Notes: generated by a model from the sequence alone, not told the origin. Shown: positions 3,412 to 30,134, counted from the first letter of the stretch. The stretch: 64,000 nt of DNA from a virus (IMGVR_UViG_3300035520_000607:32001-96000), one strand, 5' to 3'. Numbers and translations: made by a program.

Positions 3412-3778
3412 AGAAATAACCAATGATTATGATAGACAAAACAATAGAAGACAATTTCTATTTATGAGTCGTGGTCAAGGTAAAACAAATGCAATTATAG
3501 AAAAATTAATTAAAGAAAATAGAGAACTAAAATCTAAATTAGAAATGTATGAAAATGGAGCAATTTATTCTAGTAATGTAGATGAACTACAAGAAGAAAC
3601 ATCTAAATTAACCAAGCAATGGTTAAAATCTAAAGAAGAAAAAAGGGAATTACAAGATAGAATTGATAAGGTTATCAACTATATAGAAGATGGTTTTTTA
3701 GAAAATTGTACTGTTCCAATATATGATGTAAAACATGGTTTAGAAAATATATTACAAATATTGAAAGAAAATAAATAA
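3395..3778 (+). CDS. hypothetical coiled-coil protein
   Basis: AAGGAG RBS, 127 aa. Confidence 0.6.
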   Translation: MAQIVKEITNDYDRQNNRRQFLFMSRGQGKTNAIIEKLIKENRELKSKLEMYENGAIYSSNVDELQEETSKLTKQWLKSKEEKRELQDRIDKVINYIEDGFLENCTVPIYDVKHGLENILQILKENK

Positions 3779-3807
3779 ATATGGATTTATGGAATAGGAG
3801 GGATAAA

Positions 3808-4023
3808 ATGCAAGCAATTAATGATAGTGAGCTAAGAGATCTAATTGAGAAAACAAACTACTATACTAGAGCCTATGATGAAGGTAACCCTGAGATTTCA
3901 GACCAAGAGTGGGATGATTTATACTTTAAATTAGTTCAATTAGAAAAAGATACTAATACATATTATGAAGATAGTCCTACTCAAAGAATTAATAAATTAA
4001 ATGGAGGAATATGACAAAGGTAA
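3808..4023 (+). pseudogene. orphan N-terminal fragment (domain Ia) of NAD-dependent DNA ligase
   Basis: AGGAGG RBS; AYDEGNPEISDQEWDDLY..L..LE..DSPTQRI aligns with the start of the full ligase at 4892; stops at TAA 4023. Confidence 0.75.
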
Positions 4024-4908
4024 TCGATTTAACAGGACAAAAATTTGGAAAATGAACTGTTATAAAAAAAGACTTAGATAGAACAAGTAGCAAAACTTAT
4101 TGGCTATGCAATTGTGATTGCGGAACTAAAAATGCTAGTGTTGAAAGTTGAAAATTAAGAAGCGGTAACTCTAAATCCTGTGGATGTTTAATGAGGACTC
4201 CAGATTTAAGAACTGGAGAAAAATTTGGATTATTGACAGTTATAAAAAAAAATTGATACTAAAAATTATTTATGCAAGTGTGAGTGCGGCAAAATAAAAA
4301 CTGTTACTAAAAGCCATTTGAAAAATGGACATACAAAGTCTTGTGGATGTTTGACTCGTAAAAAAAGTGAAGAAAAGATGCTTAACAAAAGATTTGGTAA
4401 ATTGACTGTTGTAAAAGATAGTGGAGAAAGGGATTATAAACAAAATATTTTATGAGAATGTCAATGCGATTGTGGAAATAAAGTTTTAGCAAATACTGAT
4501 ATTTTAAATAAAGGAGAAAAAATTTCTTGTGGATGCTTAAAGCAGTCTAAAGGAGAATATTTCATTGAAAGGATCTTAAAAGAAAATAATATAAAATATG
4601 AAAAAGAAAAATCTTTAATAAAAAACTACCCTTTATTAAGGTTTGATTTTTATATTAATAAGCAATACATTATTGAATTCGACGGGAAACAACACTTTCT
4701 TTGTAGTAATAATGGATGAAACAATAAAGAGCATTTTGAAAAAACTAGAAAAAATGATATTATAAAAAATAAATGATGCAAAGATAATAACATTCCACTT
4801 ATCAGGATACCATATACTCATTTAGAAGAGGTGTGTATAGAAGACTTATTATTAGAAACAAGTAAATTTATTTATAAAGGAGAAGAGTACTATGAAAGAA
4901 TTAATTAG
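4011..4908 (+). mobile_element. free-standing homing endonuclease (three CxCxCG zinc modules plus Vsr/DUF559-like PD-(D/E)xK domain), +1 frameshift in A9 tract 4244-4252
   Basis: Code 4 reading: DLTGQKFGKW(TGA)TV, YWLCNCDCG, LCKCECG, LW(TGA)ECQCDCG, SKGE, RFDFY, IEFDGKQHF, KNKW(TGA)CKDNNIPLIRIPY; absent from ORF track. Confidence 0.8.
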
Positions 4909-6832
4909 TAAATTAAATCATTATAGGGATTTGTATTATAATAAAGGTATATCTGAAATTTCAGATAAAGAATATGATACTTTATATAATGAACTTGAAA
5001 AGATGGAAAAAGAAACTGGAATTATTATGTCTAATTCTCCGACTCAAACAGTTGGTTATACAATATCAAAGGGGCTTAAAAAAGTTGTTCATTCGCATAA
5101 GATGCTATCACTAGAAAAAACAAAAAGTATTTCTGATTTAAAAAATTTTATTAATAAAGAAGATTGTATAGGAGATTGTATTATGTCTTTAAAGATGGAT
5201 GGACTAACAATCTTATTAACTTATGAAAATGGAAAATTAGTCAGAGGTGAAACAAGAGGAGACTCTATAGAGGGACAACTTGTTACAGAAGCAATAAAAC
5301 ATTTTGATAATGTTCCATTATCCATTCCTTTTAATGATTATTTTGAAATTGAAGGAGAAGCCATTATTACTTATGAAGATTTTAATCAAATTAATACAAA
5401 TGGGAATTATCAGAATCCAAGAAACTTAGCTAGTGGTACTTTAGCTCTTTTAGATACTAAAGAAATAGCAAAAAGACATTTGAAATTTATAGCCTGGAAA
5501 GTGCCTACAAATATTGCTTCTACTTACACAGAAAGATTTAAAATAGCAAAAAATTTTGGCTTTACTGTAGTTCCATATCTTATTGTAAACAATAATATTG
5601 AAGAAATAATAAGAACATTAAAAAAAGATGCAGAAAAATTATTTTATCCAATAGATGGTCTTGTTATTTCATATAATAATATCGAATATGGTTTATCTTT
5701 AGGAGAAACGACTCATGCTCCTCGACATTCTTTAGCCTATAAATTCTACGACGAGGAATATGGGACTACTTTATTAGACATTGATTATGATATAAGTAGG
5801 AATGGCATTTTAACTCCTGTTGCTGTATTTGAACCTGTTGAGATAGATGGTACAGAGGTTTCAAGAGCTTCATTATATAATATTTCAGTCATGAAAGATA
5901 CTTTTCACGGCCAAGGTTGGAAAGGTCAAAAAATAAAGGTTGTTAAAAGAAATCAAATAATACCTAAAATTGAATGGGCAGAAGTAGATGTTGAAACTGA
6001 AAAAGAATATCTTAATATCCCATCTACCTGTCCTATATGTGGCGGAGATACAATAATAAATGATAATGATGGTGTATTAGTACTTAAATGCGGGAATCCG
6101 CAATGTAGTGGTCTATTGGTAAACAGAATTGAACATATGTTTGGAAGGGGAGGTTTAGATGCAAAAGGAATATCAAAAGCAACTATTGGAAAACTTATTG
6201 ACTGGGGATGGGTCTCATCAATCAGCGATATGTTCACCTTATCAAGGTACAAGAGAGCGTGGGCAAACAAGGAAGGTTTTGGTGAGAAGTCTGTTGACAA
6301 TATTATCAGGTCAATCGAATCAAGTTCTAATTGCAACCTCGAATCCATCATCAGTGGAGCAGGTATACCACTTATTGGTAGAACAGTTGCAAGAGATATT
6401 GCCGCAAGATATGATACTTATGCTTCGTTTAAGAAAGACATCACAGGGGATTTTGATTTTTCGAGCATAAATGGATTTGGCTATGAAATGAATAAGGCTC
6501 TAAAAAACTTTGATTATACTGAATTAGATTATATTGTTGAAAATTATTTAACAATTAAAGAAAAAGAAAAAATAGTAGACAATAGTAATAAATTAGAAAA
6601 TTTAACATTTGTAATTACTGGAAAATTAAATAAAGAAGGTCAATTTAAAAATAGAGATACTTTAAAAGCCTTTATTGAAAAAAATGGCGGAAAGGTCGCT
6701 AGCGCAGTAAGTAAAAACACTAATTATTTGATTGCCAATCAAGAAGAAAATACAACTAAATATAATAATGCAAAAGCTCTAGGGATTAGCCTTATAACTG
6801 AAGAAGAATTCAAAAATATTTTTGACTTATAA
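4892..6832 (+). CDS. ligA: NAD-dependent DNA ligase
   Basis: KMDG adenylation motif, TRGD, NPRN, CPICG zinc finger, HhH repeats, BRCT (FVITG...GGKV). Confidence 0.95.
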   Translation: MKELISKLNHYRDLYYNKGISEISDKEYDTLYNELEKMEKETGIIMSNSPTQTVGYTISKGLKKVVHSHKMLSLEKTKSISDLKNFINKEDCIGDCIMSLKMDGLTILLTYENGKLVRGETRGDSIEGQLVTEAIKHFDNVPLSIPFNDYFEIEGEAIITYEDFNQINTNGNYQNPRNLASGTLALLDTKEIAKRHLKFIAWKVPTNIASTYTERFKIAKNFGFTVVPYLIVNNNIEEIIRTLKKDAEKLFYPIDGLVISYNNIEYGLSLGETTHAPRHSLAYKFYDEEYGTTLLDIDYDISRNGILTPVAVFEPVEIDGTEVSRASLYNISVMKDTFHGQGWKGQKIKVVKRNQIIPKIEWAEVDVETEKEYLNIPSTCPICGGDTIINDNDGVLVLKCGNPQCSGLLVNRIEHMFGRGGLDAKGISKATIGKLIDWGWVSSISDMFTLSRYKRAWANKEGFGEKSVDNIIRSIESSSNCNLESIISGAGIPLIGRTVARDIAARYDTYASFKKDITGDFDFSSINGFGYEMNKALKNFDYTELDYIVENYLTIKEKEKIVDNSNKLENLTFVITGKLNKEGQFKNRDTLKAFIEKNGGKVASAVSKNTNYLIANQEENTTKYNNAKALGISLITEEEFKNIFDL

Positions 6833-6850
6833 AAAAATTTTTGATATAAT
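6822..6850 (+). promoter_or_regulatory. sigma70-type promoter
   Basis: TTGACT-17-TATAAT, TG extension. Confidence 0.7.
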
Positions 6851-6966
6851 ATATATGAAAGATGAAAGAAAAAGAAAGAATTAAAAAGTTGGCAACTAAT
6901 AGCCCATTTATTTAAGTCAACTTAATATAACTTTTCTTAAATCATCTAAAAGAAAAGCATATATAA

Positions 6967-6995
6967 TTGACAAAATAAAAAATTTTTGATAAAAT
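6967..6995 (+). promoter_or_regulatory. sigma70-type promoter
   Basis: TTGACA-17-TAAAAT, TG extension. Confidence 0.7.
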
Positions 6996-7044
6996 ATATA
7001 TGTAATAAAATATTATAAGAAATTAAAAGGAGAGAAAGAAAATT

Positions 7045-7347
7045 ATGATGAAACCAAATAGTATTTTAGTTTATAACTATGTAAAAGAAAACGGAAGTAA
7101 AAACATTACAGCTGCTGATATAGCTGAAGGAACTGGATTAAATGTAAGAACAGTTAACGGTATCGTTACTGCTGCATTCCAAAGACATACTATCGTTGTA
7201 GATGGAGAAAAAGTTGCTCAACCATTAATGGTTAGAGAACCAGCTGAAATTGAATTAGCAGATAATACCCACCAAATGGTAAAATTTATTAAGTTAACAG
7301 AGGCTGGGGAGTCATTCAACCCTGAAGCATCTGATGACGCTGAATAA
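7045..7347 (+). CDS. winged-HTH DNA-binding protein
   Basis: ITAADIAEGTGLNVRTVNGIV helix-turn-helix; AAGGAG RBS. Confidence 0.65.
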   Translation: MMKPNSILVYNYVKENGSKNITAADIAEGTGLNVRTVNGIVTAAFQRHTIVVDGEKVAQPLMVREPAEIELADNTHQMVKFIKLTEAGESFNPEASDDAE

Positions 7348-7361
7348 TAAAATAATTAAAA

Positions 7362-7398
7362 AATAAATAGAGTGATTAATATTCACTCTATTTATTTT
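7362..7398 (+). terminator. intrinsic terminator
   Basis: AAATAAATAGAGTGA/TCACTCTATTTATTT inverted repeat. Confidence 0.65.
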
Positions 7399-7420
7399 AG
7401 AAAGGATAAATTTAACAGAT

Positions 7421-9612
7421 ATGTGAATATTTTTTATAATTATTTTGTTCATTTTAAGCTTAGTTATTTTTTATAAAACTTATAAATTATCACAAAGTAT
7501 AAAAATTATTGAAAATAATAACAATGCAATTAAAATTGAAAGAAAAAAATTAGAGTCAGAGAACAAAAATATACAAAAAGAAATAGATGTAAAAAAATCT
7601 TCATTAGATGCTATTCAAGCCTCATTAGAAAAATTAAAAGAAACATCATGCAAATCATTTGAAGAATATACAAATTTACTTCAATATCAATATCAACAAG
7701 AAGAAAAAGAGTATGACAATGCAATAGACGCTTTAAGACATAGCTATCAACAGTTACAAGATAAATTAAGTGCGGAAATGGGTGAAGCGCGCGAAGATCT
7801 AGAAAAAGTTCGTTCAACGAGAGCCGCCGCAATTCAAGCACAATTAAAAGAACAAGAAATAAAAGATCAACAATCTTTCTATTGCCCTCAAGTGCCTGAA
7901 GACGAGCTTAATGATGCTAGGGCTCTCCGCGCAATAGAATATAAACTTAATAACCCAAGAGTATTAAGAATGCTGATATGGCAAACTTACTATCAAAAGC
8001 CAATTAATCAAGTATGCGCAAATATTTTAGGAGGCGCAACCGCAGTTAAATGTGGAATTTATAAAATAACAAATCAAATTGATGGAATGGTGTATATAGG
8101 TCAAACGGTCAATTAATCGGCCGATGAAAAACTTTACTTACTAGCTGGTAGGGGTTATCTTTTAAGATAGCTAACGAGGAAGGAAAATTTAAAAAATTTT
8201 ATAATCTCGTGGGAAAATTTGGTTAATCCATCCTTTATAAAAATAACATACAATGAAGGGATAAAAATATTTTATAAAGGAGTTAGATATTATGAAAAAA
8301 ATTAATATTAATGATACTACAGTAATAACAGGTATATATTTAATTAAATATCCAAATAGCAAAGTCTATATTGGGCAAGCACAAAATATTCATTTACGAA
8401 TATTAGAACACAATAGTAGAGCTAAAAATAATAGACGCGGAGATGGCAAAAAACCTCAACTATGTGATAGTAAAATACGAAAATATTTTCCTGATGGAGT
8501 AAAAGAATATTATATTTTAGAAGAATGTTTAATAGATAAACTTGATGAGAGAGAAAAGTATTGAATTAATTTATATGATGCACTAAATAAAGAGAAAGGG
8601 TATAATTTTTTAGACAAAGGAGATGTATCTGGACGCAGGGGCGTTGATAATGCCAATGCTTCTTTGACAAAAGAGCAATTAGGGAAAATTATAGATTTAT
8701 TATTAAATCATTATGAGCTTTCTTATAGAGATATTGCTCAACAAGTTGGGACGTCTTTAAGAGTAGTACAAAATATTTCTTGGGGAAAAAGTTATATTAA
8801 TGATAATTTATCTTATCCATTAAGGAACAATATACATAATTTTGCAAAGAAAGATAAAGTAACAGATTATTTTAATTCTGAAGTGTTTTTAATTAATTTA
8901 AAAGAAGATTTAAAATATAGCTGGTGGCTTGCTATAGAAACAGATTTAGTCAATAAATATAAGATACCTCTAAATATTTTAAGAGAAATAAACCATGGAG
9001 AAAAATTCAGTGAAATAGGAGATTATACTTATCCCATAAGAAATAAAAATATAAGAAACAGATATAATTTATCCAAAGAGGATATTATAAATCTATTAAA
9101 TGATTTAAAGAATACTGACATTTCTATGACTGAATTAGGAAAAAAATATGGCTTTGGAAGAGCTGCAATTTCAAACATTAACAAAGGTTTAGCTTATCCA
9201 ATAAAAGGATATAACTATCCTGCTAGATTAACCAAATAACCTGTATCGACTATTCCCTAAGCCTTCTGGGCAGGGAAGTAGGGCTACTATTAGCACGTAG
9301 CAGCATTTTAGGAAACGAAGTGCTTTAAATGCCGAAATGGTTTCCTTTAATTATATAATTAAAGTAAGAAATAGTCAAAGCGATATCGCAACCCGCTGAA
9401 AAAATCATGCTAAGTGCGGATTGGGGATAGATACTCCCGCAGGAAATAAGCTTTATAAAGCTATGCAAGAAGTTGGTCTAGAGAACTTCTCTTTTGAATT
9501 ATTAGAAGAATGTTCAAAAGATGAATTAAATGAGAAAGAAAAATATTATATTGAATTATATCAATCTTATGAATTCGGATATAACTCAAACGCTGGAATA
9601 AAAAAGAATTAG
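7421..9612 (+). CDS. membrane-anchored coiled-coil protein with C-terminal GIY-YIG nuclease domain; spliced join(7421..8109,9381..9612), about 306 aa
   Basis: MW(TGA)IFFIIILFILSLVIFY TM helix; CGIYKITN..VYIGQTV joins in frame to DIATRW(TGA)KNH...LYKAM...FELLEEC...EKYYI...GYN. Confidence 0.8.
8110..9380 (+). ncRNA. group I self-splicing intron
   Basis: 5' exon ends in U, intron ends in G; IGS ATCGGCCG pairs with exon 1 CGGT (U.G at splice site) and exon 2 CGAT (P10); P7 GACTA 9248/TAGTC 9372 with AAGAAATAGTC; removal restores the frame. Confidence 0.85.
8292..9239 (+). CDS. intron-encoded GIY-YIG homing endonuclease with C-terminal HTH repeats (315 aa, code 4)
   Basis: GIYLIKY..VYIGQA..R..EH; EREKYW(TGA 8562)INLY..GYN joins the 8292 and 8664 ORFs in frame. 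Confidence 0.88.
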
Positions 9613-9641
9613 TTGATTATAAATGAAAAAAATAATATAAT
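9613..9641 (+). promoter_or_regulatory. sigma70-type promoter
   Basis: TTGATT-17-TATAAT. Confidence 0.6.
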
Positions 9642-9662
9642 ATAATTATAGAAAGGAACTTT

Positions 9663-19973: not shown

Positions 19974-22900
19974 ATGACTGGAAGAGTTGACTTACATAAT
20001 CATACAAGGTATTCTAATTTAAGACTTAGAGATGCTTTAGCAACGCCAGAGCAGTTAATTGATAGAGCTATTGAATTAGGGCTATCTGGAATTGCTATCA
20101 CAGACCACGAGACTGTTGCAGGACATATTAAAGCAAATCAATATGCTCAAAAGATTGCAGAGACATCTCCTGATTTTAAAGTTATATTAGGAAATGAAAT
20201 TTATTTAGTAGATGAACGACCTTCAGAGAAACATTGGCATTTTATATTAATAGCAAAAGATGCTGAAGGGCATCATCAGCTAAGAGAGCTATCTTCTTTA
20301 GCATGGTTGAACAGTTATTCTTCAAAAGGAATGACAAGAGTAGATACTTTAAAAGAAGAGCTAAAAGAAATAGTAGAGAAGAATCCTGGACATTTGATCG
20401 CGAGTAGTGCGTGCATAGGCTCAGAGGTTGGACAGAATATTCTAGACCTAGTAGCCGCTGAAGCAACAGGGGATAAGATATTAGAACAGAATGCTCATAA
20501 TAATATAGTTAATTATATTTTATGGTGTAAAGATGTTTTTAAAGATGACTTTTATATTGAAGTTCAGCCAGGAACTAGTAGAGAGCAAATCATAGTGAAT
20601 AAAAGGCTAGCCTCAGTAGCAAAATGTTTTGGAGTTAAGATGATCCCGACTTCTGATACTCACTATTTGAAAAAAGAAGATAGATATGTTCATAAAGCAT
20701 TTTTAAATAGTGAAAATAAAGAAAGAGAAGTAGATGCCTTTTATCAAGATACTTACCTACATTCAAATGAAGAGATGATAGAGAAGTTTAAAGAATCAGA
20801 TTATTCAGAAGATTTTGTCAATGAAATGTTTGAAAATACTTTAGAAATATATAATAAAGTAGAAAATTATTCTTTAGCTCATGCTCAACAAGTTCCAAAA
20901 GTAGATGTTGATTATTATCCTAAGAAGAATCCTCCAGAAGGTTTAGAAAAATATAATACTCTTTCTGAGATGTACCAATCAGAAGATGAAATTAATAGAT
21001 ATTGGATTAATAAATGTATAGATCGATTAAAAGAAATAAATAAATTTAATGAAGTGTATCTAGACGAATTAGAGGAAGAAGCAGAAGTTAAAAAAATTAT
21101 CGGAGAAAAATTAGATACAAATATGTATGCTTATCCAGTATGCTTAGCTCATTATATTAATTTAATGTGGAATTGCGGAAGCTCGATTGGAGTAGGAAGA
21201 GGGTCTGCTTGTTCAGCTTTAAATCATTATCTTTTAGGCATTACTCAATTAGATAGCATTGAGTGGAATTTTCCTTTCTTTCGATATATGAATAGGGACA
21301 CAGATGGACTAGGAGATATAGATATAGATGTTTGCCCTAGTAAAGTTCAAAAAATTATTTCCGCAATAAGAGAAGAAAGAGGACAAAAATTTAAAAAAGA
21401 AATAGAGAATCCTATTTTTAGAGAAAATCTTGGAGCTGTCTATGTTTGTACTTTTGGAACAGAGTCTACAAAGAGCGCAATTCTTACTGCGGCAAGGGGA
21501 TATCGATCAGAAGAATATCCAGAAGGGATAGATATTGATACTGCTCAATATCTTAGCTCTTTGGTCCCAAGCGAAAGAGGATTTGTCTGGAGTATTCATG
21601 ATGTAGTTTATGGAAATGAAGAAAAAGATAGAAAACCTGTAAAAATATTTGTAAATGAAATAAAACAGTACCCTGGATTGTTAGAAATAATAGAGGGTAT
21701 CGAAGGATGCATATCTCGAAGAGGAAGACACGCCTCAGGAGTATTATTTATGGGAGAAGACCCTTTTGAATTTAATGCTTTTATGAAAACTCCTAGTGGA
21801 GAAATCGTAACTCAATATGATTTACATGATGCAGAATGGGCTGGTAGTGTAAAGATGGATATTCTTGTAACAGAAGTTCAAGATAAAATAGTTCAAACTT
21901 TAAAATTTCTTCAAAGAGATGGCTTACTAGATCAAAATCTAAATTTAAGAGAGCTATATAATAAATATCTTCATCCAGATGTTTTACCTCTTGATAAAAA
22001 AGAGATCTGGAAAGTTATTCAAGAAGCTTCTACATTAGACTTATTTCAATTAGATTCTGATATTGGAAGACAAGGAGCAAAAAAAGTAAAACCTTCAAAT
22101 ATAAATGAATTATCTTCAGTAAATGGTCTTATTAGATTAATGACAACAGAAAAAGGTGCAGAATCTTGGCTAGATAAATATACGAGATTTAAAAATGATA
22201 GAAAAGAAATAGTTAAAGAAATGGATAGATATGGACTTACTTTAAAAGAAAAGATAGCTTTAAATAGATATTTAGAAATTACTTATGGAATTGGTATTTC
22301 ACAAGAACAATTAATGAAAGTTTTAATGGATGAAGATATTTGTAATTTCTCTCTTAAAGAAGCTAATAAAGCTAGAAAAGTAGTTTCAAAGAAGAAGATG
22401 AGCGAAATTCCTAATTTAAAACAAAAGGTAAAGGAAACCGCAAAGAGTGAAAATTTATTTAATTATGTATGGGATTATGTTGTAGGCCCTGGACTAGGAT
22501 ACTCTTTTTCAGATATTCATAGTTTATCTTATTCTTTTATAGGTTTCCAAACTGCTTATTTAGCAACTAATTGGAATCCTATTTATTGGAACACCTCTTG
22601 TTTAATTGTAAATAGTGGAAGTCTTGAAGAAGAATCTGATTTTGAAGAAGATGAAGATGGAGAGATTATAAAGAAAAAAGAAAAAAGTAGTGATTATGGA
22701 AAAATTGCTAAAGCTATTGGAGATACTCGATCAAGAGGAATTAGAGTTTCATTAATAGATATAAATAAATCTAGTTATAGTTTTGAGCCAGATATAGAAA
22801 ATAATGAAATCTTATTTGGAATGAAAGCCTTAAGTAATGTTGGAGGTCCAGTTATAGAACAAATAATTAGCGGCCGCCCTTACTATGGAATTGCAGATTT

Positions 22901-23924
22901 TATGAATAGATGTCCATTAAATAAAAGTGCAATGTTCTCTTTAATTAAAGGTGGAGCTTTTGATAAATTAGAAATTGAATGGGCAAAAGAACTTAACATA
23001 GAACCAAGAAAATTAATCATGATTTATTATATATCAAAAGTATGTGAAGCTAAAAAGAGAATTACATTACAAAATTTTAATGGCTTAATTCAACATAATT
23101 TAATACCTGCGGAATTAGATTTACAAAAGAAAGTTTATAACTTTACAAAGTATTTAAAAGCAAATAAAAAAGTAGGAAAATATTATGTATTTGATAATAT
23201 TTGTGAAGATTTTTACAACAAATATTTTGATGAAGATCAACTTGAAATTATAAATGGTTTAACTTGTATTCAACAAATTAAATGGGATAAAATTTATCAA
23301 GATACAATGGATAAAGTTAGAGATTGGATAAGAGATAATCAAGAACAAATCTTAAATGACTATAACAATATTTTATTTAAAGAGTGCTGGGATAAATATG
23401 CAATAGGTAATATAAGTTCGTGTGAAATGGAAGCATTATGTTTTTATTATCATAAACATGAATTAGCAGATGTAAAAGTAGACAAATATGGAATTGTAGA
23501 TTTTAATACTTTATCTCCTGAATCTGAAGTTGATTATTTGTTTAAGCGCGGCGGTCATGACATTCCTATTTATAAGATAAATAAAATTATTGGAACAGTA
23601 ATAGGGAAAAATGATACTCGTTCATCAATTACGCTATTAACAACAACAGGTGTAGTAACAGTAAAATTTACAAAAGAATATTTTGCAATGTATAACCGTC
23701 AAATGTCTGAGAAACAAGAAGATGGAACTAAAAAAATTGTTGAAAAAGGTTGGTTTACAAGAGGAACTAAGCTATTGGTTGCTGGGTATAGAAGAGATGA
23801 CTCATTCGTAGCAAAAACATATAAAAGCAATGGTTTCCACCAATTATATAAAATAGTAAAAATATTAGATAACGGAGAAATAGAATTAGTTCATGATAGA
23901 GCTGGTTCAAGTGAAGAAGAGTAG
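19974..23924 (+). CDS. dnaE: DNA polymerase III alpha subunit
   Basis: PHP LHNHTRYS/ITDH, GRGSA, DIDID, HASG, KMDIL, YSFS..H. Confidence 0.95.
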   Translation: MTGRVDLHNHTRYSNLRLRDALATPEQLIDRAIELGLSGIAITDHETVAGHIKANQYAQKIAETSPDFKVILGNEIYLVDERPSEKHWHFILIAKDAEGHHQLRELSSLAWLNSYSSKGMTRVDTLKEELKEIVEKNPGHLIASSACIGSEVGQNILDLVAAEATGDKILEQNAHNNIVNYILWCKDVFKDDFYIEVQPGTSREQIIVNKRLASVAKCFGVKMIPTSDTHYLKKEDRYVHKAFLNSENKEREVDAFYQDTYLHSNEEMIEKFKESDYSEDFVNEMFENTLEIYNKVENYSLAHAQQVPKVDVDYYPKKNPPEGLEKYNTLSEMYQSEDEINRYWINKCIDRLKEINKFNEVYLDELEEEAEVKKIIGEKLDTNMYAYPVCLAHYINLMWNCGSSIGVGRGSACSALNHYLLGITQLDSIEWNFPFFRYMNRDTDGLGDIDIDVCPSKVQKIISAIREERGQKFKKEIENPIFRENLGAVYVCTFGTESTKSAILTAARGYRSEEYPEGIDIDTAQYLSSLVPSERGFVWSIHDVVYGNEEKDRKPVKIFVNEIKQYPGLLEIIEGIEGCISRRGRHASGVLFMGEDPFEFNAFMKTPSGEIVTQYDLHDAEWAGSVKMDILVTEVQDKIVQTLKFLQRDGLLDQNLNLRELYNKYLHPDVLPLDKKEIWKVIQEASTLDLFQLDSDIGRQGAKKVKPSNINELSSVNGLIRLMTTEKGAESWLDKYTRFKNDRKEIVKEMDRYGLTLKEKIALNRYLEITYGIGISQEQLMKVLMDEDICNFSLKEANKARKVVSKKKMSEIPNLKQKVKETAKSENLFNYVWDYVVGPGLGYSFSDIHSLSYSFIGFQTAYLATNWNPIYWNTSCLIVNSGSLEEESDFEEDEDGEIIKKKEKSSDYGKIAKAIGDTRSRGIRVSLIDINKSSYSFEPDIENNEILFGMKALSNVGGPVIEQIISGRPYYGIADFMNRCPLNKSAMFSLIKGGAFDKLEIEWAKELNIEPRKLIMIYYISKVCEAKKRITLQNFNGLIQHNLIPAELDLQKKVYNFTKYLKANKKVGKYYVFDNICEDFYNKYFDEDQLEIINGLTCIQQIKWDKIYQDTMDKVRDWIRDNQEQILNDYNNILFKECWDKYAIGNISSCEMEALCFYYHKHELADVKVDKYGIVDFNTLSPESEVDYLFKRGGHDIPIYKINKIIGTVIGKNDTRSSITLLTTTGVVTVKFTKEYFAMYNRQMSEKQEDGTKKIVEKGWFTRGTKLLVAGYRRDDSFVAKTYKSNGFHQLYKIVKILDNGEIELVHDRAGSSEEE

Positions 23925-24046
23925 GAATAGCCTTCTCTTTCTTCTTCTCTGGTCAATATTGGACAATCTATTTAAAAGTTTTTTGATACATAATATCGGG
24001 TAAATATTTATAAACCCCTTAAAAATAATTAAATAATTGAGGAGGA

Positions 24047-26275
24047 ATGAAAATGTTACAAGTTCAAAAACGCGATGGTAGAATCGTAGAGTTTAATGAA
24101 CAAAAAATTATGAATGCGATACTTGCCGCATTTAAAGAAGTGGATGGAGAGATTAATGAATATGCTCAAACAAAAGCTGAAAACATTGCAAGTTATATTA
24201 GAGGTTACTATGAAGATGTAGAAGAAATTCCTAATATAGAAGAAATTCAAGACCTCGTTGAAAAAGGTTTAATGTCAACGAAGAGGAAGGATGTAGCGAA
24301 AGCTTATATTCTTTATAGAGAAAACAGAACGAAAGCAAGAGGGAATATAATAGACAAAGAAGTTCTAGAATTTTTAGATGGCGCAAGTGAATATTGGAAT
24401 ACTGAGAACTCTAATAAAAATGCCCAAATTGTTACAACCCAAAGAGATTATTTAGCTGGAATTTTATCTACTGATATTGCAAGAAGAGTTATTTTACCAA
24501 AAGAAGTTGTAGAAGCTCATGACGCAGGAATTATACATGAACATGATATGGATTATTTATCTCAAAATGCATTAACTAACTGTTGTTTAATTAATTTAAA
24601 TGATATGTTACAAAATGGAACTGTAATTAATGGTATTATGATAGAAAAACCTCATAAATTACTTACTGCTACAACTATTGCTACTCAAATAATTTTAGGA
24701 GTATCTTCAAGTCAATATGGTGGATGTAGTGTTTCTTTAGCACATTTAGCACCTTTTGTTAGAGATAGTTACAATTATTATTATAATAAATATATGAGAA
24801 GAACTAATAATGAACCACTATCTGAGACATTTGCAATGGAAGATTTAAAGAAAGAAATTGAAGCAGGAGTTCAAACTTTTAATTATCAAGTCAATTCAAT
24901 GACGAATACCAACGGTCAGTCCCCTTTTCTCACGGTATTCATGTACCTAGGCGAGACAGAAGAATTCAAAGATGAATTAGCTATGTTGATAGAAGAATTT
25001 TTAAAACAAAGAATTGAAGGAATGAAAAATGAAGTTGGCGCTTATATTACCGTTGCTTTCCCTAAATTAATTTATGTCCTTGAAGAAGATAATATTAATG
25101 AAGATAGTAAATATTGGGAATTAACTAAATTGGCAGCTAAATGCACTGCAAAAAGACTTGTTCCTGATTATATTTCTGAGAAAATGATGAAAAAAATTAA
25201 AATTAATAAATATGGAAAAGGAGATTGCTTTGCTGTAATGGGTTGTCGTTCCGCATTATCTCCATGGAGTGTTGAAGGAAATCCTTCAAAAGCAAAAGAC
25301 TATGTTGAAGGAGAAGGAAAATATTATGGAAGATTTAATTGCGGAGTTACTACAATAAATCTACCAGATGTGGCATTTTCATCAAAAGGAAATTATGATA
25401 AGTTTTGGGAATTAATGGAAGAAAGAACAGAATTATGTCATAAAGGCCTTCAAGCAAGAATAAAAAGGCTATTAAATGTAACAAGTGATATAGCGCCTAT
25501 CTTATGGCAACATGGAGCTTATGCTAGACTAGAAAAAGGAGAAAAACTAACAAATTTAATTTATGGAGGTTATTCCACTGCTAGTTTAGGATATGCAGGA
25601 TTATATGAATGCACAAAATATATGACTGGAAAATCACATACGGATGGAGCAGAAGGAGAAAAATTCGCGCTAGAAGTAATGCAATTTTTAAATAAAAAAT
25701 GTAACCAATGGAAAGAAGCTGAAAATATAGGTTATTCTATTTATGGTTCACCTATTGAATCAACAACTTATAAATTTGCTAAATGTTTGAAAAAAAGATT
25801 TGGAGAAGATATTTTTATAAAATTAGATGGAAAAGATAGAAATTACATAACAAATAGTTTCCACGTTCCAGTATTCGAAGCTATTGATCCTTTTACTAAA
25901 TTATCTATTGAGGCTAAATTCCAAGAACTAAGCTCTGGAGGTATGATTTCTTATGTAGAGAGTGCCGATATGAGCAGAAATACAGAAGCACTTCTTGAAG
26001 TAATGAAGTTTATTTATAATAATATCATGTATGCGGAAATCAATACTAAATCAGATTATTGTCAAGTCTGCGGTTATGATGGTGAAGTCAAAATCGTAGA
26101 CATAGATGGTAAACTTGATTGGGAATGCCCTCAATGTGGTAATATGGATCATAACAAAATGAATGTAGCTAGAAGGGTATGTGGATATATATCAACAAAC
26201 TTCTTTAATCAAGGAAGAACAGATGAAATAAACAATAGATATGTTCATTTAGATAATCATCAATTAGGAGAGTAA
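24047..26275 (+). CDS. nrdD: anaerobic ribonucleoside-triphosphate reductase
   Basis: ATP cone (VQKRDG), NCCL, MGCRS, YITNSFH, CQVCG/CPQCG, RRVCGY glycyl-radical site. Confidence 0.95.
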   Translation: MKMLQVQKRDGRIVEFNEQKIMNAILAAFKEVDGEINEYAQTKAENIASYIRGYYEDVEEIPNIEEIQDLVEKGLMSTKRKDVAKAYILYRENRTKARGNIIDKEVLEFLDGASEYWNTENSNKNAQIVTTQRDYLAGILSTDIARRVILPKEVVEAHDAGIIHEHDMDYLSQNALTNCCLINLNDMLQNGTVINGIMIEKPHKLLTATTIATQIILGVSSSQYGGCSVSLAHLAPFVRDSYNYYYNKYMRRTNNEPLSETFAMEDLKKEIEAGVQTFNYQVNSMTNTNGQSPFLTVFMYLGETEEFKDELAMLIEEFLKQRIEGMKNEVGAYITVAFPKLIYVLEEDNINEDSKYWELTKLAAKCTAKRLVPDYISEKMMKKIKINKYGKGDCFAVMGCRSALSPWSVEGNPSKAKDYVEGEGKYYGRFNCGVTTINLPDVAFSSKGNYDKFWELMEERTELCHKGLQARIKRLLNVTSDIAPILWQHGAYARLEKGEKLTNLIYGGYSTASLGYAGLYECTKYMTGKSHTDGAEGEKFALEVMQFLNKKCNQWKEAENIGYSIYGSPIESTTYKFAKCLKKRFGEDIFIKLDGKDRNYITNSFHVPVFEAIDPFTKLSIEAKFQELSSGGMISYVESADMSRNTEALLEVMKFIYNNIMYAEINTKSDYCQVCGYDGEVKIVDIDGKLDWECPQCGNMDHNKMNVARRVCGYISTNFFNQGRTDEINNRYVHLDNHQLGE

Positions 26276-26276
26276 T

Positions 26277-26762
26277 ATGAGATATGCTCAAATAAGAAAA
26301 ATGGATATAAGTAACGGATGCGGAATTGGGGTATCATTGTTTACTCAAGGTTGCCGCATCCATTGTAAAAATTGTTTTAATAAAGAAATATGGAATTATG
26401 ATGGCGGAAATAAATGAACTGATGAAGTATGCAATAACTTTATAAAACTAATTGAACCTGATTACATTACAAGAGTAAGCATACTTGGAGGAGAACCTCT
26501 AAGTGAAGAAAATTTAAAAGATTTAAAAAATTTATTTTCATTAATTAAAGAGAAATACCCAAATAAAAAGATATGGTTATATACTGGCTATATTTATGAG
26601 AATTTAAAGCAAGAGCAAAAAGAGATTGCGGAAATGGCTGACTATTTAGTAGATGGTCCTTATAGAGATGAGGAGCGCGATTTAACATTGCATTATCGCG
26701 GTTCCCGCAATCAAAGAATTATAGACATGAGGAAGGCACTAGAAGAAAAAGGAATTAATTAA
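26277..26762 (+). CDS. nrdG: anaerobic RNR activase (radical SAM), code 4
   Basis: DISNG.GIGVSLFTQGCRIHCKNCFN, GGNKW(TGA 26415)T, ILGGEP, WLYTG, LVDG, RGSRNQR; missing from ORF track. Confidence 0.92.
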
Positions 26763-26796
26763 TCTTAATTCCTTTTATTCTCTTGAAAAAGCAACG

Positions 26797-27219
26797 ATGA
26801 GAGAAATTACGCGAGAGATGATAAAAGAATATCGTATTAATAAAATTAAATATGATTTTATGGGCTACACTTTTAATAGATATGAAGAATTGAGTTTTCA
26901 TCATTTGATTGTACCTAGGAGAGAATGTAAAGCTCAAGGCCTTGGTGATGGATACTATTTTTGAAATGGAGCTATTTTAAATCAAGAAACTTCACATGAT
27001 TATCTTCATATTATAGAAAGAATTGATAGACAAGCTTTCTTACAAATAACAGATATAATGATATGGGAAAATCAACAAAAAGAAATAGATTTAAAAAGCT
27101 TAAAAGATATTAGACAAATATTACTATTATTTGAAGATACCTATAAAAATGAAAAAAATAAATCTGGACAAAAGATTCTAAAAAGACAATTTATAAACAA
27201 TAGGATAGATTTATCATAA
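26797..27219 (+). CDS. HNH-like protein, code 4
   Basis: 140 aa ORF with LSFHHLIVP...YFW(TGA)NGAIL...SHDYLH (HH..N..H pattern). Confidence 0.6.
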
Positions 27220-27258
27220 AAAGAATAAAAAGAGGAGAAAATAAAATCTTCTTTTTTT

Positions 27259-27287
27259 TTGACTTTAAAACAAAAAAATGTTATAAT
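27259..27287 (+). promoter_or_regulatory. sigma70-type promoter
   Basis: TTGACT-17-TATAAT with TG. Confidence 0.7.
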
Positions 27288-27308
27288 AAATATATAAGAA
27301 AATGAAAG

Positions 27309-27767
27309 GTGTTTTATATGATAAAAAAAATACTAACCTATCCTAAAGATAGAGATACTCTATCTCAAATTAGTGAGGAAGTCAAATCAATAGAAGATTA
27401 TAAAGATCTTATTCAAGATTTAAAAGATACGCTAAAAGATAATGGAGATACTGGAGTAGCTATTTCCGCAATTCAAATAGGAGAGCCAAAAAGAATTTGT
27501 TATATTAATTATGATAACAGAGAAATAGTTATGATTAATCCTATTATCACGTGGAAAAGATCTGGGGCTTCTGGAATGAAAGAATTTCTTGAAGGTTGTC
27601 TAAGCGCCCCTGGTAAATATAAGAAAGTATCTAGACCTCAAAAGGTAATTTGTCAATACACTGATGAGAATGGCGAATTAAAAGAAATTGCAGAAGGCGG
27701 ATGGATGAGCGCAATAATTCAACATGAACTAGATCATTTTGAAGGAATATGCAAAGTATCAGAATAG
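27309..27767 (+). CDS. def: peptide deformylase
   Basis: GVAISAIQIG, EGCLS, QHELDH; start may be ATG 27318. Confidence 0.92.
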   Translation: MFYMIKKILTYPKDRDTLSQISEEVKSIEDYKDLIQDLKDTLKDNGDTGVAISAIQIGEPKRICYINYDNREIVMINPIITWKRSGASGMKEFLEGCLSAPGKYKKVSRPQKVICQYTDENGELKEIAEGGWMSAIIQHELDHFEGICKVSE

Positions 27768-27777
27768 GAGTATCTAA

Positions 27778-28077
27778 ATGGCAGAATTTAAAGTTCATAG
27801 TTTAAAAATAAAAACTGATGAAAATAATTTAAAAATAGAAGATTCTTATGTTATAAAAACAAAAGAAAAAATGACTTTAATATTAAATGATGCATTTAAA
27901 AAATTAGATTTATGGGACTTTAAAACGAAAAGAGATATGAATTCTTTAATAAGGCAATGGAGAACTTACAATAAGTTATATAAAATGCATTTATTTAGAA
28001 AGAAAACAAGAAGTTGTAATTTCAAAATAAAAAATAATAAAATTATAGAAATTATTTATATGATATTAGGATTTTAA
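27778..28077 (+). CDS. hypothetical protein
   Basis: GGAG RBS, 99 aa. Confidence 0.6.
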   Translation: MAEFKVHSLKIKTDENNLKIEDSYVIKTKEKMTLILNDAFKKLDLWDFKTKRDMNSLIRQWRTYNKLYKMHLFRKKTRSCNFKIKNNKIIEIIYMILGF

Positions 28078-28091
28078 AAGGAGGCACCTAA

Positions 28092-28469
28092 ATGAGCGAA
28101 GTAACAATGGGAACGCTATATGATTTAAATAAACAAGTTGTTCAAGCAGAGATATCTCTAACAGGAGAATATTTAGAAAAGAAAAAAGATATAATTAAAG
28201 ATTTTTTAAAAAATACTGATGGTATGTATTATATGCTATTATGTAATGAGAGAAAAGATTATACAGTATTTAGAAATGAATATAGACATGCGGGAGATCT
28301 AGATGCATTTGCTAATGTTTTAGTAGATGAATGTCTTCTTAACCGCGGATTAGTCAAAGGAATAGACAAAACAAAAGGTGAAACTGCTATCGAGATATGG
28401 CTATCAATAGATGGAGAAGCTTATGTATACTATTTCTTTAAATATGATGATGCAATTATAGAAATATAA
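28092..28469 (+). CDS. hypothetical phage protein
   Basis: AGGAGG RBS, 125 aa. Confidence 0.65.
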   Translation: MSEVTMGTLYDLNKQVVQAEISLTGEYLEKKKDIIKDFLKNTDGMYYMLLCNERKDYTVFRNEYRHAGDLDAFANVLVDECLLNRGLVKGIDKTKGETAIEIWLSIDGEAYVYYFFKYDDAIIEI

Positions 28470-28481
28470 GGAGGAAATACT

Positions 28482-28751
28482 ATGGGAAAAAGTATATTAG
28501 TAGATTGTAAAATGTTTACTAAACAACAAAAAGTTTTTGCCTTAGATGAAGAACATGGAATAACTGGAATTATAGATACTGAGATAGATAAAATCCCTGA
28601 AACTGTTATGTCTTTATCAAGAGATATTGAATGTAATGTAGTTAATATAAAAGGTTTAAAAGCTTATACAAAAGGGATAGAGAAAAATATAAAAGAATAT
28701 GAATTAAGTAAATATAACGAAAATAAACTAGTTATTAACTTAATTAAATAA
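28482..28751 (+). CDS. hypothetical protein
   Basis: AGGAGG RBS, 89 aa. Confidence 0.6.
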   Translation: MGKSILVDCKMFTKQQKVFALDEEHGITGIIDTEIDKIPETVMSLSRDIECNVVNIKGLKAYTKGIEKNIKEYELSKYNENKLVINLIK

Positions 28752-28758
28752 AAGGAGA

Positions 28759-29022
28759 ATGAATATGAAATATTTAATTAGTACAACAGAAATATATAGA
28801 GCGGATTCAGAAGCTGAGGCTATAAAAATAATTGAAGATGCTAAAGCAGATACTCACTATGTTCTTTCAAAATATTCAAGTCAATATAAAGAAAGAAAAC
28901 AAAAAGGTGAAGTAGTAGATTCTTGGTATAAAGTTTCTTTAACTAAGTCATTTACTGATGAGAAAGAGCCTCAATTTGAAACAAGAGTAGAATATACAAA
29001 TAGTATGGAAAGTGCTTTTTAG
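28759..29022 (+). CDS. hypothetical protein
   Basis: AAGGAG RBS, 87 aa. Confidence 0.6.
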   Translation: MNMKYLISTTEIYRADSEAEAIKIIEDAKADTHYVLSKYSSQYKERKQKGEVVDSWYKVSLTKSFTDEKEPQFETRVEYTNSMESAF

Positions 29023-29034
29023 AAAGAGGTTTAA

Positions 29035-29520
29035 ATGGAAAATACAGATATTATTATAAATGATGATGATAATTATATTAATACTATGATTAAATATAAA
29101 AAATTAAATGAATTAGCAAAAGAACCTAAACATGGAAGTGCGGATGCTGCCGGTTACGATCTTTATGCGGCAACCGCAGAAGATATATCTATTCCCGCAC
29201 ATACAACTGTTAAAATAGATACTGGTTTAGCTTTTGCTTTACCTAAATATACATTTGGAGCTATCTTTGCTAGAAGTGGTTTAGCTACTAAGCAAGGCCT
29301 TAGACCAAGTAACTGTGTCGGTGTCGTAGACGCGGATTACCGAGGTCCAGTCATTGTGGCACTTCATAATGATACAGATCAAGAGCAAATAGTTTCCGCA
29401 GGTGACAGAATTGCACAACTAGTATTATTGCCATATTTACCAATGTCTTTTATTGAATCTGATAATTTAGATGAAACTGAACGTGGAGATGGTGGTTTCG
29501 GTTCTACAGGGCTTAATTAA
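29035..29520 (+). CDS. dut: trimeric dUTPase
   Basis: AGYDL, RSG, GVVDADYRG, GDRIAQL, RGDGGFGSTG. Confidence 0.95.
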   Translation: MENTDIIINDDDNYINTMIKYKKLNELAKEPKHGSADAAGYDLYAATAEDISIPAHTTVKIDTGLAFALPKYTFGAIFARSGLATKQGLRPSNCVGVVDADYRGPVIVALHNDTDQEQIVSAGDRIAQLVLLPYLPMSFIESDNLDETERGDGGFGSTGLN

Positions 29521-29567
29521 TAATTAGATGAAGTATTTATCTTCATCTTTTTTTATGTAAAAATTTC

Positions 29568-29597
29568 TTGACAAGGCTAGATAAAATATGATATAAT
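29568..29597 (+). promoter_or_regulatory. sigma70-type promoter
   Basis: TTGACA-18-TATAAT with TG. Confidence 0.7.
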
Positions 29598-29627
29598 AAA
29601 CTTGGAAATAAATAAGGAGGTGTCCAT

Positions 29628-30134
29628 ATGAGTATATTGAGTCTCGATTTATCCACAAAGAGTTCGGGGTGAGCAATCTTTGAAGGTGATGAATTAAAAA
29701 ATCATGGATGCATAACATCTTCATCAACAGATTTAATTAAGCGTATTCATATAATGATAGATGCTATTGATGAGATATTAAAAAATAATGATATAAAAGA
29801 AATCATAGTAGAGGAAGTCCGCCCTGAAGGAGGATATGGAGTTGGGAATATAAAAACAATGAAAGCCCTTATGTATCTTCAAGCGGGATTAGAATTTCTC
29901 ATTCATGATAATTATAAAAATAAAGTAGAAATTAATTATATATATCCTAGTTCTTGGAGAGCTTCTTGCGGTATTAAAAACGGAAGAGGAATAAAAAGAA
30001 CCTCATTAAAAGAGGCAGACATTGCTTTTGTTCAAGAGAAATATGGTATTACTGTAAATGATGATGAGGCGGATGCTATTTGCATTGGCTATGCTCAAAA
30101 TCATATTGAAAGTAACGAAATAAATTGGGGATAA
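29628..30134 (+). CDS. RuvC-like Holliday junction resolvase, code 4
   Basis: AGGAGG RBS; ILSLDLSTKSSGW(TGA 29670)AIF, IIVEE, PSSWR, DDEADAICIG. Confidence 0.85.

Follow-up and report, generated by a model that had tools for sequence, protein, structure and literature searches.

The stretch of DNA analysed here (the window) comprises 64,000 bases, i.e., positions 32001-96000 of a linear IMG/VR virus record (IMGVR_UViG_3300035520_000607; 123,603 bp, ~83% complete according to CheckV), and belongs to a tailed phage in which the stop codon TGA also occurs as a tryptophan (Trp) codon, absent from the replication genes and frequent in endonuclease and late genes. Coordinates refer to the window unless otherwise stated. 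The window is AT-rich (GC content 27-35%), and its GC skew changes sign near position 30,100, the junction of a plus-strand arm and a minus-strand arm. Open reading frames (ORFs) were called with TAA and TAG as the sole stops, and TGA and TGG codons were counted per ORF. With TGA as a stop, the minus arm fell into fragments, whereas with TGA as a sense codon it yielded ORFs of 500-2,700 codons. Based on Pfam and PHROGs, the plus arm encodes an RNA ligase, a kinase and phosphatase pair, RNase H, and GyrB/GyrA 5' of the window, followed within the window by a CHAP lysin-like gene, a Mom-like gene, NAD ligase, ClpP-like, AAA_24, DnaB, primase, RecJ, a UvrD-type helicase, DUF5131, DnaE, NrdD, NrdG, peptide deformylase, dUTPase, and RuvC. 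The late (tail and structural) arm occupies 30192-64000 on the minus strand with tail PHROG matches, and past the window it encodes a capsid-like protein, portal, TerL, and a sigma-like protein. No close relative was found in the INPHARED phage collection, where the best DnaE matches were SPbeta-like and Enterococcus phages at 37% identity.

The two codons are sharply partitioned. The block from 9663 to 26275 (+; ClpP-like, p311, AAA_24, p171, DnaB, Toprim primase, RecJ, UvrD-type helicase, DUF5131, p81, DnaE (Pol III alpha), and NrdD, according to Pfam and the codon table) contains 66 TGG and no TGA. An earlier note on this DNA had given about 65 TGG and no TGA for the same block, TGG only for ligase and endolysin, and about 40 TGA for the tail arm; all three hold, as the ligase has 0 TGA/6 TGG, the CHAP lysin-like gene 0/5, and the late arm 42 in-frame TGA within the window. 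Across the plus arm, no internal TGA and 115 TGG were counted in 36 genes, a set that leaves out the endonuclease ORFs, NrdG, p140, RuvC, and a ligase fragment. The five endonuclease-related plus-arm ORFs carry 8 TGA/5 TGG, NrdG, p140, and RuvC one TGA apiece, and the whole late arm 52 TGA/116 TGG (~32% TGA). Fisher tests by gene class support the separation drawn in the earlier note, both for the endonuclease ORFs versus the other plus-arm genes (p=9e-10) and for the late arm versus the plus arm (p=4e-14). Internal TGA was present in 33/133 ORFs of at least 60 aa (25%). As a terminator, TGA has been given up: at most six ORFs have TGA within the last five codons, each with TAA or TAG close behind. 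Such codons, found in the Mom-family gene (1804-2955, +; TGA five codons ahead of TAA) and five other ORFs, may be relics of opal termination backed up by a nearby second stop. In late genes, TGA was not biased towards early positions (mean relative position 0.51 for TGA and 0.52 for TGG, p=0.96). Among nucleases, RNase H (0/4 TGA/TGG) and RecJ (0/5) lack TGA, and a PD-(D/E)XK endonuclease elsewhere in the genome has zero Trp codons. The sigma-like p356 and its neighbour p402 (L046:8305-10601, -; genome 112305-114601), which head the late arm, are TGA-free in this genome (0/5 each) and have 52-64% TGA in recoded relatives.

The meaning of TGA was assessed by comparison with 42 related loci retrieved with NrdG and DnaE. 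Their in-frame TGA codons align chiefly to Trp in this genome and otherwise mostly to Phe or Tyr, and TGA codons of this genome align to Trp encoded by TGG or TGA in relatives (homing endonuclease codon 46, p140 codon 56, RuvC codon 15, NrdG codon 47). Alignment confirms that genuine genes use TGA in sense where Trp is conserved. Eight tRNA genes were detected in the genome, one being an ordinary tRNA-Trp(CCA). The only one with a UCA anticodon is a non-canonical gene of 95 nt outside the window (genome 14765-14859; L043:14765-14859, -), here called tRNA(UCA). It has two successive anticodon-like arms with the loops CUUCAAA (UCA) and CUCCAAA (CCA), of which the second forms a long "variable arm," and a sigma-70-type match (10/12) lies 33 nt 5' of it. 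Two recoded relatives encode counterparts of 96-97 nt (L169:1371-1467, -; L170:1496-1591, +), in which both arms are conserved with base changes on both stem sides; a standard-code relative gave just the ordinary tRNA-Trp(CCA). Judged by its anticodon, tRNA(UCA) is a putative phage-encoded suppressor or decoder of UGA, and one may speculate that the CCA arm keeps recognition by tryptophanyl-tRNA synthetase (TrpRS) while the UCA arm decodes. Searches of the record for a release factor (PF00472; RF-1) and TrpRS (PF00579) gave no match, which at ~83% completeness does not prove their absence. Within the tRNA cluster of one of the recoded relatives (L169:714-1153, -; a 127-kb record), ARAGORN additionally called a gene resembling transfer-messenger RNA, although this call may be false.

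Three TGA-bearing genes follow the TGA-free block. NrdG, the activase of the anaerobic ribonucleotide reductase (RNR), is encoded at 26277-26762 (+; Pfam Fer4_12, E=4e-42) and starts one base past the NrdD stop, so that a shared mRNA is most likely. Its TGA (codon 47, 26415-26417) is opposite W(TGA) in 2 and W(TGG) in 4 relatives, as well as aromatic residues, and in the relative L007, three Trp positions of NrdG are TGA, including one that is also TGA in this genome. The p140 gene (26797-27219, +) carries TGA at codon 56, a position with TGA in 6/7 relatives and TGG in 1, and p140 is a conserved gene with TGA in each of the 7 related loci where it occurs. Pfam and PHROGs returned nothing usable for p140; a weak similarity to HIT proteins is seen in two motifs (FHHLIVPKR and GLGDGY...SHDYLH) and in a PDB profile match to HINT2 at E=0.03, and an AlphaFold model from 6 sequences had a mean predicted local distance difference test score of 64 with a disordered N-terminal half. 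An assignment of p140 to HNH endonucleases, made by eye, was unsupported and dropped. The RuvC-like Holliday-junction resolvase (29628-30134, +; phrog_827, E=2e-19 over residues 2-161; Pfam RuvC, residues 4-64) has an AAGGAGG ribosome-binding site and TGA at codon 15 (29670-29672), right after the first catalytic Asp; in relatives, W(TGA) occupies this position 5 times and W(TGG) 3 times. Directly 5' of RuvC (29526-29597, +), a terminator hairpin (29526-29548) is followed by a sigma-70-type promoter match (29568-29597; 12/12 with TG). A perfect extended -10 match of the same class (10297-10325, +; 12/12 with TG) lies ahead of the replisome genes. In the plus arm, extended -10 matches of 11-12/12 precede p311, peptide deformylase, and RuvC, and a scan of 20 kb of the late arm gave zero such matches at intergenic positions. 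Because RuvC combines an early-type promoter with a ribosome-binding site and NrdG abuts NrdD, the mRNA of both is plausibly available early, and UGA would then delay or reduce the protein.

The endonuclease-related ORFs with TGA are found at two loci. At the ligase locus, a complete NAD-dependent DNA ligase (4892-6832, +; Pfam DNA_ligase_aden, E=2e-50, with OB and BRCT domains) is preceded by three short ORFs. The first (3781-4023, +; 80 aa) is a remnant of a ligase N-terminal (Ia) domain with a weak Pfam Nlig-Ia match below the cut-off (E=0.008) and a TGA (codon 78) that precedes TAA by two codons; the ORF repeats the N-terminus of the downstream full ligase, the same Ia motif occurring twice in the translations. 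The second (4011-4262, +; 83 aa; phrog_374 HNH endonuclease, positions 191-252, E=4e-16) duplicates the N-terminal domain of the homing endonuclease next to it and has TGA at codons 15, 47, and 82 as well as one TGG; codon 15 is mostly opposite Leu in relatives. The third (4318-4908, +; 196 aa) is the free-standing homing endonuclease itself (phrog_559, E=5e-26; phrog_9084, E=3e-23), whose 3' end overlaps the ligase start and in which every Trp codon is TGA (codons 46, 134, and 153) and none is TGG. In high-scoring segment pairs with relatives, its codon 46 corresponds to W(TGA) 17 times and to W(TGG) 4 times. The arrangement from 3781 to 4908 (ligase fragment, endonuclease fragment, full homing endonuclease, and then the complete ligase) looks like the footprint of an endonuclease-associated swap of an older ligase allele. 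An intron-split ligase gene was considered and rejected, as the ligase of 646 aa is complete with an Ia domain of its own, the ORF at 3781-4023 being a duplicated piece.

At the second locus (7421-9612), a membrane-anchored GIY-YIG gene is split. Its 5' part (7421-8113, +) is contained in ORF 7421-8116, whose residues 182-231 correspond in alignments to residues 1-50 or 155-260 of relatives lacking the interruption and which has a possible TGA at codon 2 (ATG TGA) that depends on a putative start codon. Its 3' part (9382-9612, +; phrog_5123, phrog_7168) is contained in ORF 9337-9612, with TGA at codon 21 (W(TGG) 10 and W(TGA) 3 times in segment pairs with relatives). In L027, L035, L015, and L020, single proteins align contiguously across the two flanks, and ORFs 7421-8116 and 9337-9612 thus represent one gene in two halves. 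Between them lies an intron-like insert of ~1.27 kb (8114-9381, +), which carries an ORF for a homing endonuclease with GIY-YIG and helix-turn-helix domains (8292-9239; Pfam GIY-YIG, phrog_7168; TGA at codon 91). Neither a gathering-score Rfam search of the whole window nor one of 3600-9800 that admitted E-values up to 5 returned a group I intron or other relevant family, and a ribozyme core of the insert was not recognised; the insert is possibly an intron or a disrupting insertion. The earlier note had counted five endonucleases with TGA, RuvC among them, often placed early. The endonuclease-related ORFs and RuvC do carry it, but 4011-4262 is a mere domain copy and 7421-8116 and 9337-9612 count as one gene; early placement applies to codon 15 of 4011-4262 and of RuvC, but not to late genes in general nor firmly to codon 2.

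Two further observations concern catalytic motifs. In the UvrD-type helicase gene (17602-18788), a 6-nt insertion, TAGGTA, interrupts Walker A with an in-frame TAG (17695-17697), so that the motif reads ISGYA*VGTGKST here and ISGYAGTGKST or ISGYAGSGKST in nine relatives. The TGA-free replisome thus includes one gene with an in-frame amber codon in its P-loop. A second instance of a stop-bearing 6-nt insertion in a catalytic motif was seen in NrdG of L007, the closest small relative, where two extra codons lie inside the radical-SAM CxxxCxxC motif (L007:7618-7632, +; QGCP*PFHCQGC, TAA at 7624-7626).

Recoding among the relatives ranges from none (L002, L003, L018, L019, L024, L037, and L040) to heavy. 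For counting, loci with a DnaE identity of at least 90% were collapsed and at least two aligned TGA were required, which left 11 non-redundant recoded relatives; the counts given below cover aligned regions. TGA/TGG ratios were 14/3 for endonucleases, 10/1 for RuvC, 7/2 for p140, 14/10 for NrdG, 10/13 for p125, 20/34 for RecJ, 5/29 for NrdD, 19/178 for other replisome genes, and 9/192 for DnaE, the latter two pooling to 28/370 as opposed to 14/3 for endonucleases. NrdG, which the earlier note had described as having one TGA while NrdD has none, indeed differs from NrdD, significantly so in the relatives (p=7e-4) but not within this genome alone (p=0.3). Over all recoded loci, the HNH-type endonuclease family had 28 TGA and 0 TGG, and in standard-code loci 0 and 9, respectively. 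In the relatives, the partition is therefore conserved as a gradient and not as an absolute rule. The contrast between nucleases, NrdG, and replisome recurs, and the reverse arrangement that the earlier note had named as contrary evidence, i.e., TGA scattered through replication genes and absent from nucleases, was not encountered; the rule is nevertheless not strict, as L014 and L016 have TGA in replisome genes and the lightly recoded L008 and L015 have NrdG or RuvC without TGA.

These shares were compared with the neutral expectation from other codon pairs. The A-ending share of the Lys, Glu, Gln, and Leu(TTR) pairs is 80-97% in every gene class of the genome and 80-93% in early-arm genes. 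Endonucleases and RuvC of the relatives have TGA shares of 82-91%, which equals this A-over-G expectation; as the neutral level is only reached, positive selection for TGA is not required. Late genes (~32% TGA) fall below the neutral level, and near 0% TGA in the replisome is strong selection against TGA. An additional comparison was made for the capsid module, for which 80 loci were retrieved with the capsid-like protein, 13 non-redundant recoded relatives among the 80 being counted. The phage has hundreds of relatives in IMG/VR, where 358 stretches encode a relative of this protein. TGA/TGG was 1/48 for the capsid-like p341, 0/15 for p162, 0/11 for the virion protein p316, and 0/10 for p199, versus 36/34 for TerL, 56/32 for p402, 29/26 for the sigma-like p356, and 31/56 for p321 (pooled, p=1e-20). 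Abundant late proteins thus avoid TGA, and timing is not the sole axis; this avoidance is not predicted by a purely temporal lock and suggests that suppression stays costly or incomplete. Replisome enzymes, in turn, are low-copy yet TGA-free, so a constraint of early availability is needed as well. The most economical model therefore comprises two constraints, early need and high flux, together with drift to TGA where neither acts.

As a whole, the data are probably best explained by partial TGA-to-Trp recoding on a standard-code host, shaped by early-need and high-flux constraints with drift elsewhere. This phage, part of a large gut and rumen family, would partly reassign TGA from stop to Trp by supplying its own decoder, tRNA(UCA). 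Genes translated before or without efficient suppression, i.e., the replisome and nucleotide-metabolism genes behind consensus host-type promoters, would not tolerate TGA, and neither would genes of very high flux, such as those for the capsid-like, decoration, and tube-like proteins in relatives. Elsewhere, the strong A-over-G mutational bias would turn TGG into TGA, and genes whose product is needed neither early nor in abundance (selfish homing endonucleases, RuvC, and p140) would drift to the neutral limit, with NrdG, a catalytic activase probably co-transcribed with NrdD, in an intermediate position. TGA-bearing proteins would consequently appear only after build-up of the suppressor tRNA, and at lower yield, even from early mRNA as presumed for RuvC and NrdG. 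The mechanism is the one proposed for stop-codon-recoded phages generally, and by Borges et al. for the intron endonuclease of Agate phages. The earlier note had envisaged a mid-infection code switch that releases nucleases and RNR activation; the sense reading of TGA, the phage's own tRNA(UCA), and the conserved contrast between gene classes agree with this, whereas selection for TGA is not needed and timing does not act alone.

Several findings count against this explanation or loosen it. The structure of tRNA(UCA) is non-canonical, and that it is charged and decodes UGA is a prediction. In L014 and L016, TGA occurs in DnaE (6/13), DnaB, primase, and helicase; hence, suppression must precede replication in some lineages, which weakens a simple early/late switch. 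TGA counts across the related loci are not independent events given shared ancestry. The promoter calls are consensus matches alone, whose total number did not exceed that in shuffled controls. A look-up of sequencing runs for 20001-30000 gave none, RNA included. Finally, contigs with the capsid-like protein also occur in Prevotella, Treponema, and Methanobrevibacter bins, and the assignments to metagenome-assembled genomes (MAGs) are too mixed to be more than weak host evidence.

An adaptive safety lock, in which TGA would be positively selected in DNA-cleaving enzymes and NrdG and released together with the virion genes after a code switch, is a possible but unlikely alternative. It accounts for TGA in all plus-arm DNA endonuclease ORFs having Trp codons and for the exclusive use of TGA by the HNH-type family in recoded relatives, and it would give meaning to RuvC, in which a perfect early-type promoter and a strong ribosome-binding site are paired with TGA at codon 15, and to NrdG, which is unlike NrdD despite abutting genes and probably one mRNA. 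The TGA shared with several relatives at codon 46 of the homing endonuclease, codon 56 of p140, and codon 15 of RuvC fits as well, but such common positions may reflect shared ancestry. The TGA share in these enzymes is no higher than neutral A/G bias, NrdG and RuvC are TGA-free in the lightly recoded L008 and L015, RNase H and RecJ lack TGA here, p140 and p125 are TGA-rich though they are no recognisable nucleases, and late genes show no early placement of TGA. A wider version of the same thought, that TGA density is a conserved graded expression programme for which relaxed selection would not suffice and in which nucleases and the RNR activase are actively held all-TGA and licensed by accumulation of tRNA(UCA), even when transcribed from early promoters (RuvC) or after NrdD, appears doubtful.

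Also rather unlikely is a pure dosage throttle, according to which suppression would always be inefficient, TGA would lower yield, low-copy genes would carry it, and timing would be irrelevant. Among late genes, the high-copy ones do avoid TGA while low-copy ones (TerL, tail, fibre, and tape-measure-sized proteins) carry it, and NrdG, RuvC, and the homing endonucleases act catalytically. DnaE, DnaB, and primase, however, are low-copy yet TGA-free here (within the 0/115 of the plus arm) and nearly so in most relatives, so that a constraint on timing or availability has to be added.

It is very unlikely that the endonuclease TGA codons stem from import out of organisms using genetic code 4 or from pseudogene decay. 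Homing endonucleases are mobile, the same family being located beside the ligase here and between DnaE and NrdD in L007, and 4011-4262 and 3781-4023 are fragments. The same Trp positions are nevertheless TGG in standard-code relatives and TGA in recoded ones, and the codon state of the HNH-type family tracks the resident genome, which speaks against import. Moreover, the ORFs remain open for TAA and TAG over 196-315 codons in DNA of 29% GC, and the vertically conserved NrdG, RuvC, and p140 show the same trend.

Regarding the host, contigs with the capsid-like protein were binned mostly in Bacillota MAGs of ruminant and other animal origin (Lachnospiraceae, Erysipelotrichaceae, "Bacilli," and Clostridia), and the strong Shine-Dalgarno sites and the SPbeta-like DnaE fit a Bacillota host as far as sequence features can indicate. 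Phages that share the code of their host have ~90% of genes recoded (Borges et al., bioRxiv 10.1101/2021.08.26.457843). Given only 25% here, the phage-borne tRNA, and 0/115 in the plus arm under strong A-bias, the host most likely terminates at TGA, i.e., uses the standard code. A host with code 4 (or 25), and thus some other cause behind the TGA-free block, is highly improbable, for although some MAG bins with relatives are labelled Mollicutes, Tenericutes, or Bacilli, such a host would conflict not only with these three observations (the A-bias in the 36 genes being 80-93%) but also with close relatives that have no in-frame TGA at all and with the alignment of TGA to Trp and not to Gly.

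Partial TGA recoding has close precedents. TGA-recoded Agate phages of ~127 kb form a well-sampled lineage from cattle, pig, and tortoise guts with very close standard-code relatives; their replication genes use the standard code, their structural genes are recoded, and they encode a suppressor tRNA (Borges et al., bioRxiv 10.1101/2021.08.26.457843). Three Agate gene families prefer TGA over TGG, one being a group I intron endonuclease in an early gene, and TGA was interpreted as delaying its production until late (bioRxiv 10.1101/2021.08.26.457843). By description, which is the only level at which the two were matched, the phage analysed here is alike in size (123.6 kb), AT-richness, relatives of 100-146 kb from ruminant and other guts, TGA=Trp, the same partition, an intron-like GIY-YIG endonuclease, and close relatives with the standard code. 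It differs with respect to lysis: Borges et al. stress recoded lysis genes, whereas the sole recognisable lysin-like gene here (CHAP with PG_binding_1; 982-1716, +) lies in the TGA-free plus arm, outside the recoded late arm. The gating of nucleases, which the earlier note had taken to be less described, is hence not new, as Borges et al. already report a TGA-preferring intron endonuclease with the same explanation. The text of the preprint has zero matches for "ribonucleotide reductase" and two mentions of "endonuclease," both of the intron endonuclease. Neither there nor among the literature results listed were the contrast of NrdG versus NrdD, RuvC, p140, RecJ, TGA avoidance in high-copy virion genes, or a comparison with the neutral limit found. 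The core idea, endonuclease gating included, is already published, and extensions such as NrdG versus NrdD and RuvC behind an early-type promoter are incremental. The Agate study has reportedly since been published in Nature Microbiology in 2022.

More distant parallels exist as well. T4 intron-encoded and free-standing homing endonucleases such as I-TevI are translated late owing to sequestration of the ribosome-binding site in early transcripts. The likeness consists of an endonuclease ORF within or beside early genes whose product a translational device holds to low amounts or late times; in T4, this device is mRNA structure plus late promoters, whereas here it would be an in-frame UGA dependent on a suppressor tRNA. 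Code 4 of Mycoplasmatales and Entomoplasmatales is similar in that a tRNA-Trp(UCA) inserts Trp at UGA and TGA is promoted by AT pressure, but that reassignment is genome-wide and native to the cell, whereas here TGA is confined to a quarter of the ORFs of at least 60 aa and the tRNA is phage-borne. Phages of the crAss-like and Lak groups are reported to reassign TAG or TGA in late genes, keep early genes in the standard code, and encode suppressor tRNAs (Yutin et al. 2021, PMC7886860; Devoto et al. 2019, PMC6784885), and stop-codon reassignment in them has been validated by proteomics (Peters et al. 2022, PMC9523058). They share standard early genes, recoded late genes, and a phage suppressor tRNA with the phage described here, but are other lineages with Bacteroidota hosts, whereas its strong Shine-Dalgarno sites and SPbeta-like DnaE point to Bacillota.

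Few mechanisms have been proposed by which a virus could schedule its proteins via the genetic code, and stop-codon recoding is among them. The window and ~120 related loci provide a quantitative picture of how well a recoded codon is tolerated along two axes, early need and high abundance. TGA is gained in a consistent order, with homing endonucleases, p140, and RuvC first, NrdG, RecJ, and TerL next, then NrdD, and DnaE and the capsid-like protein last. Such an order may aid the annotation of phages whose genes are split by TGA, and it offers RuvC behind its early-type promoter as well as the adjacent NrdD/NrdG pair as test genes for this family.

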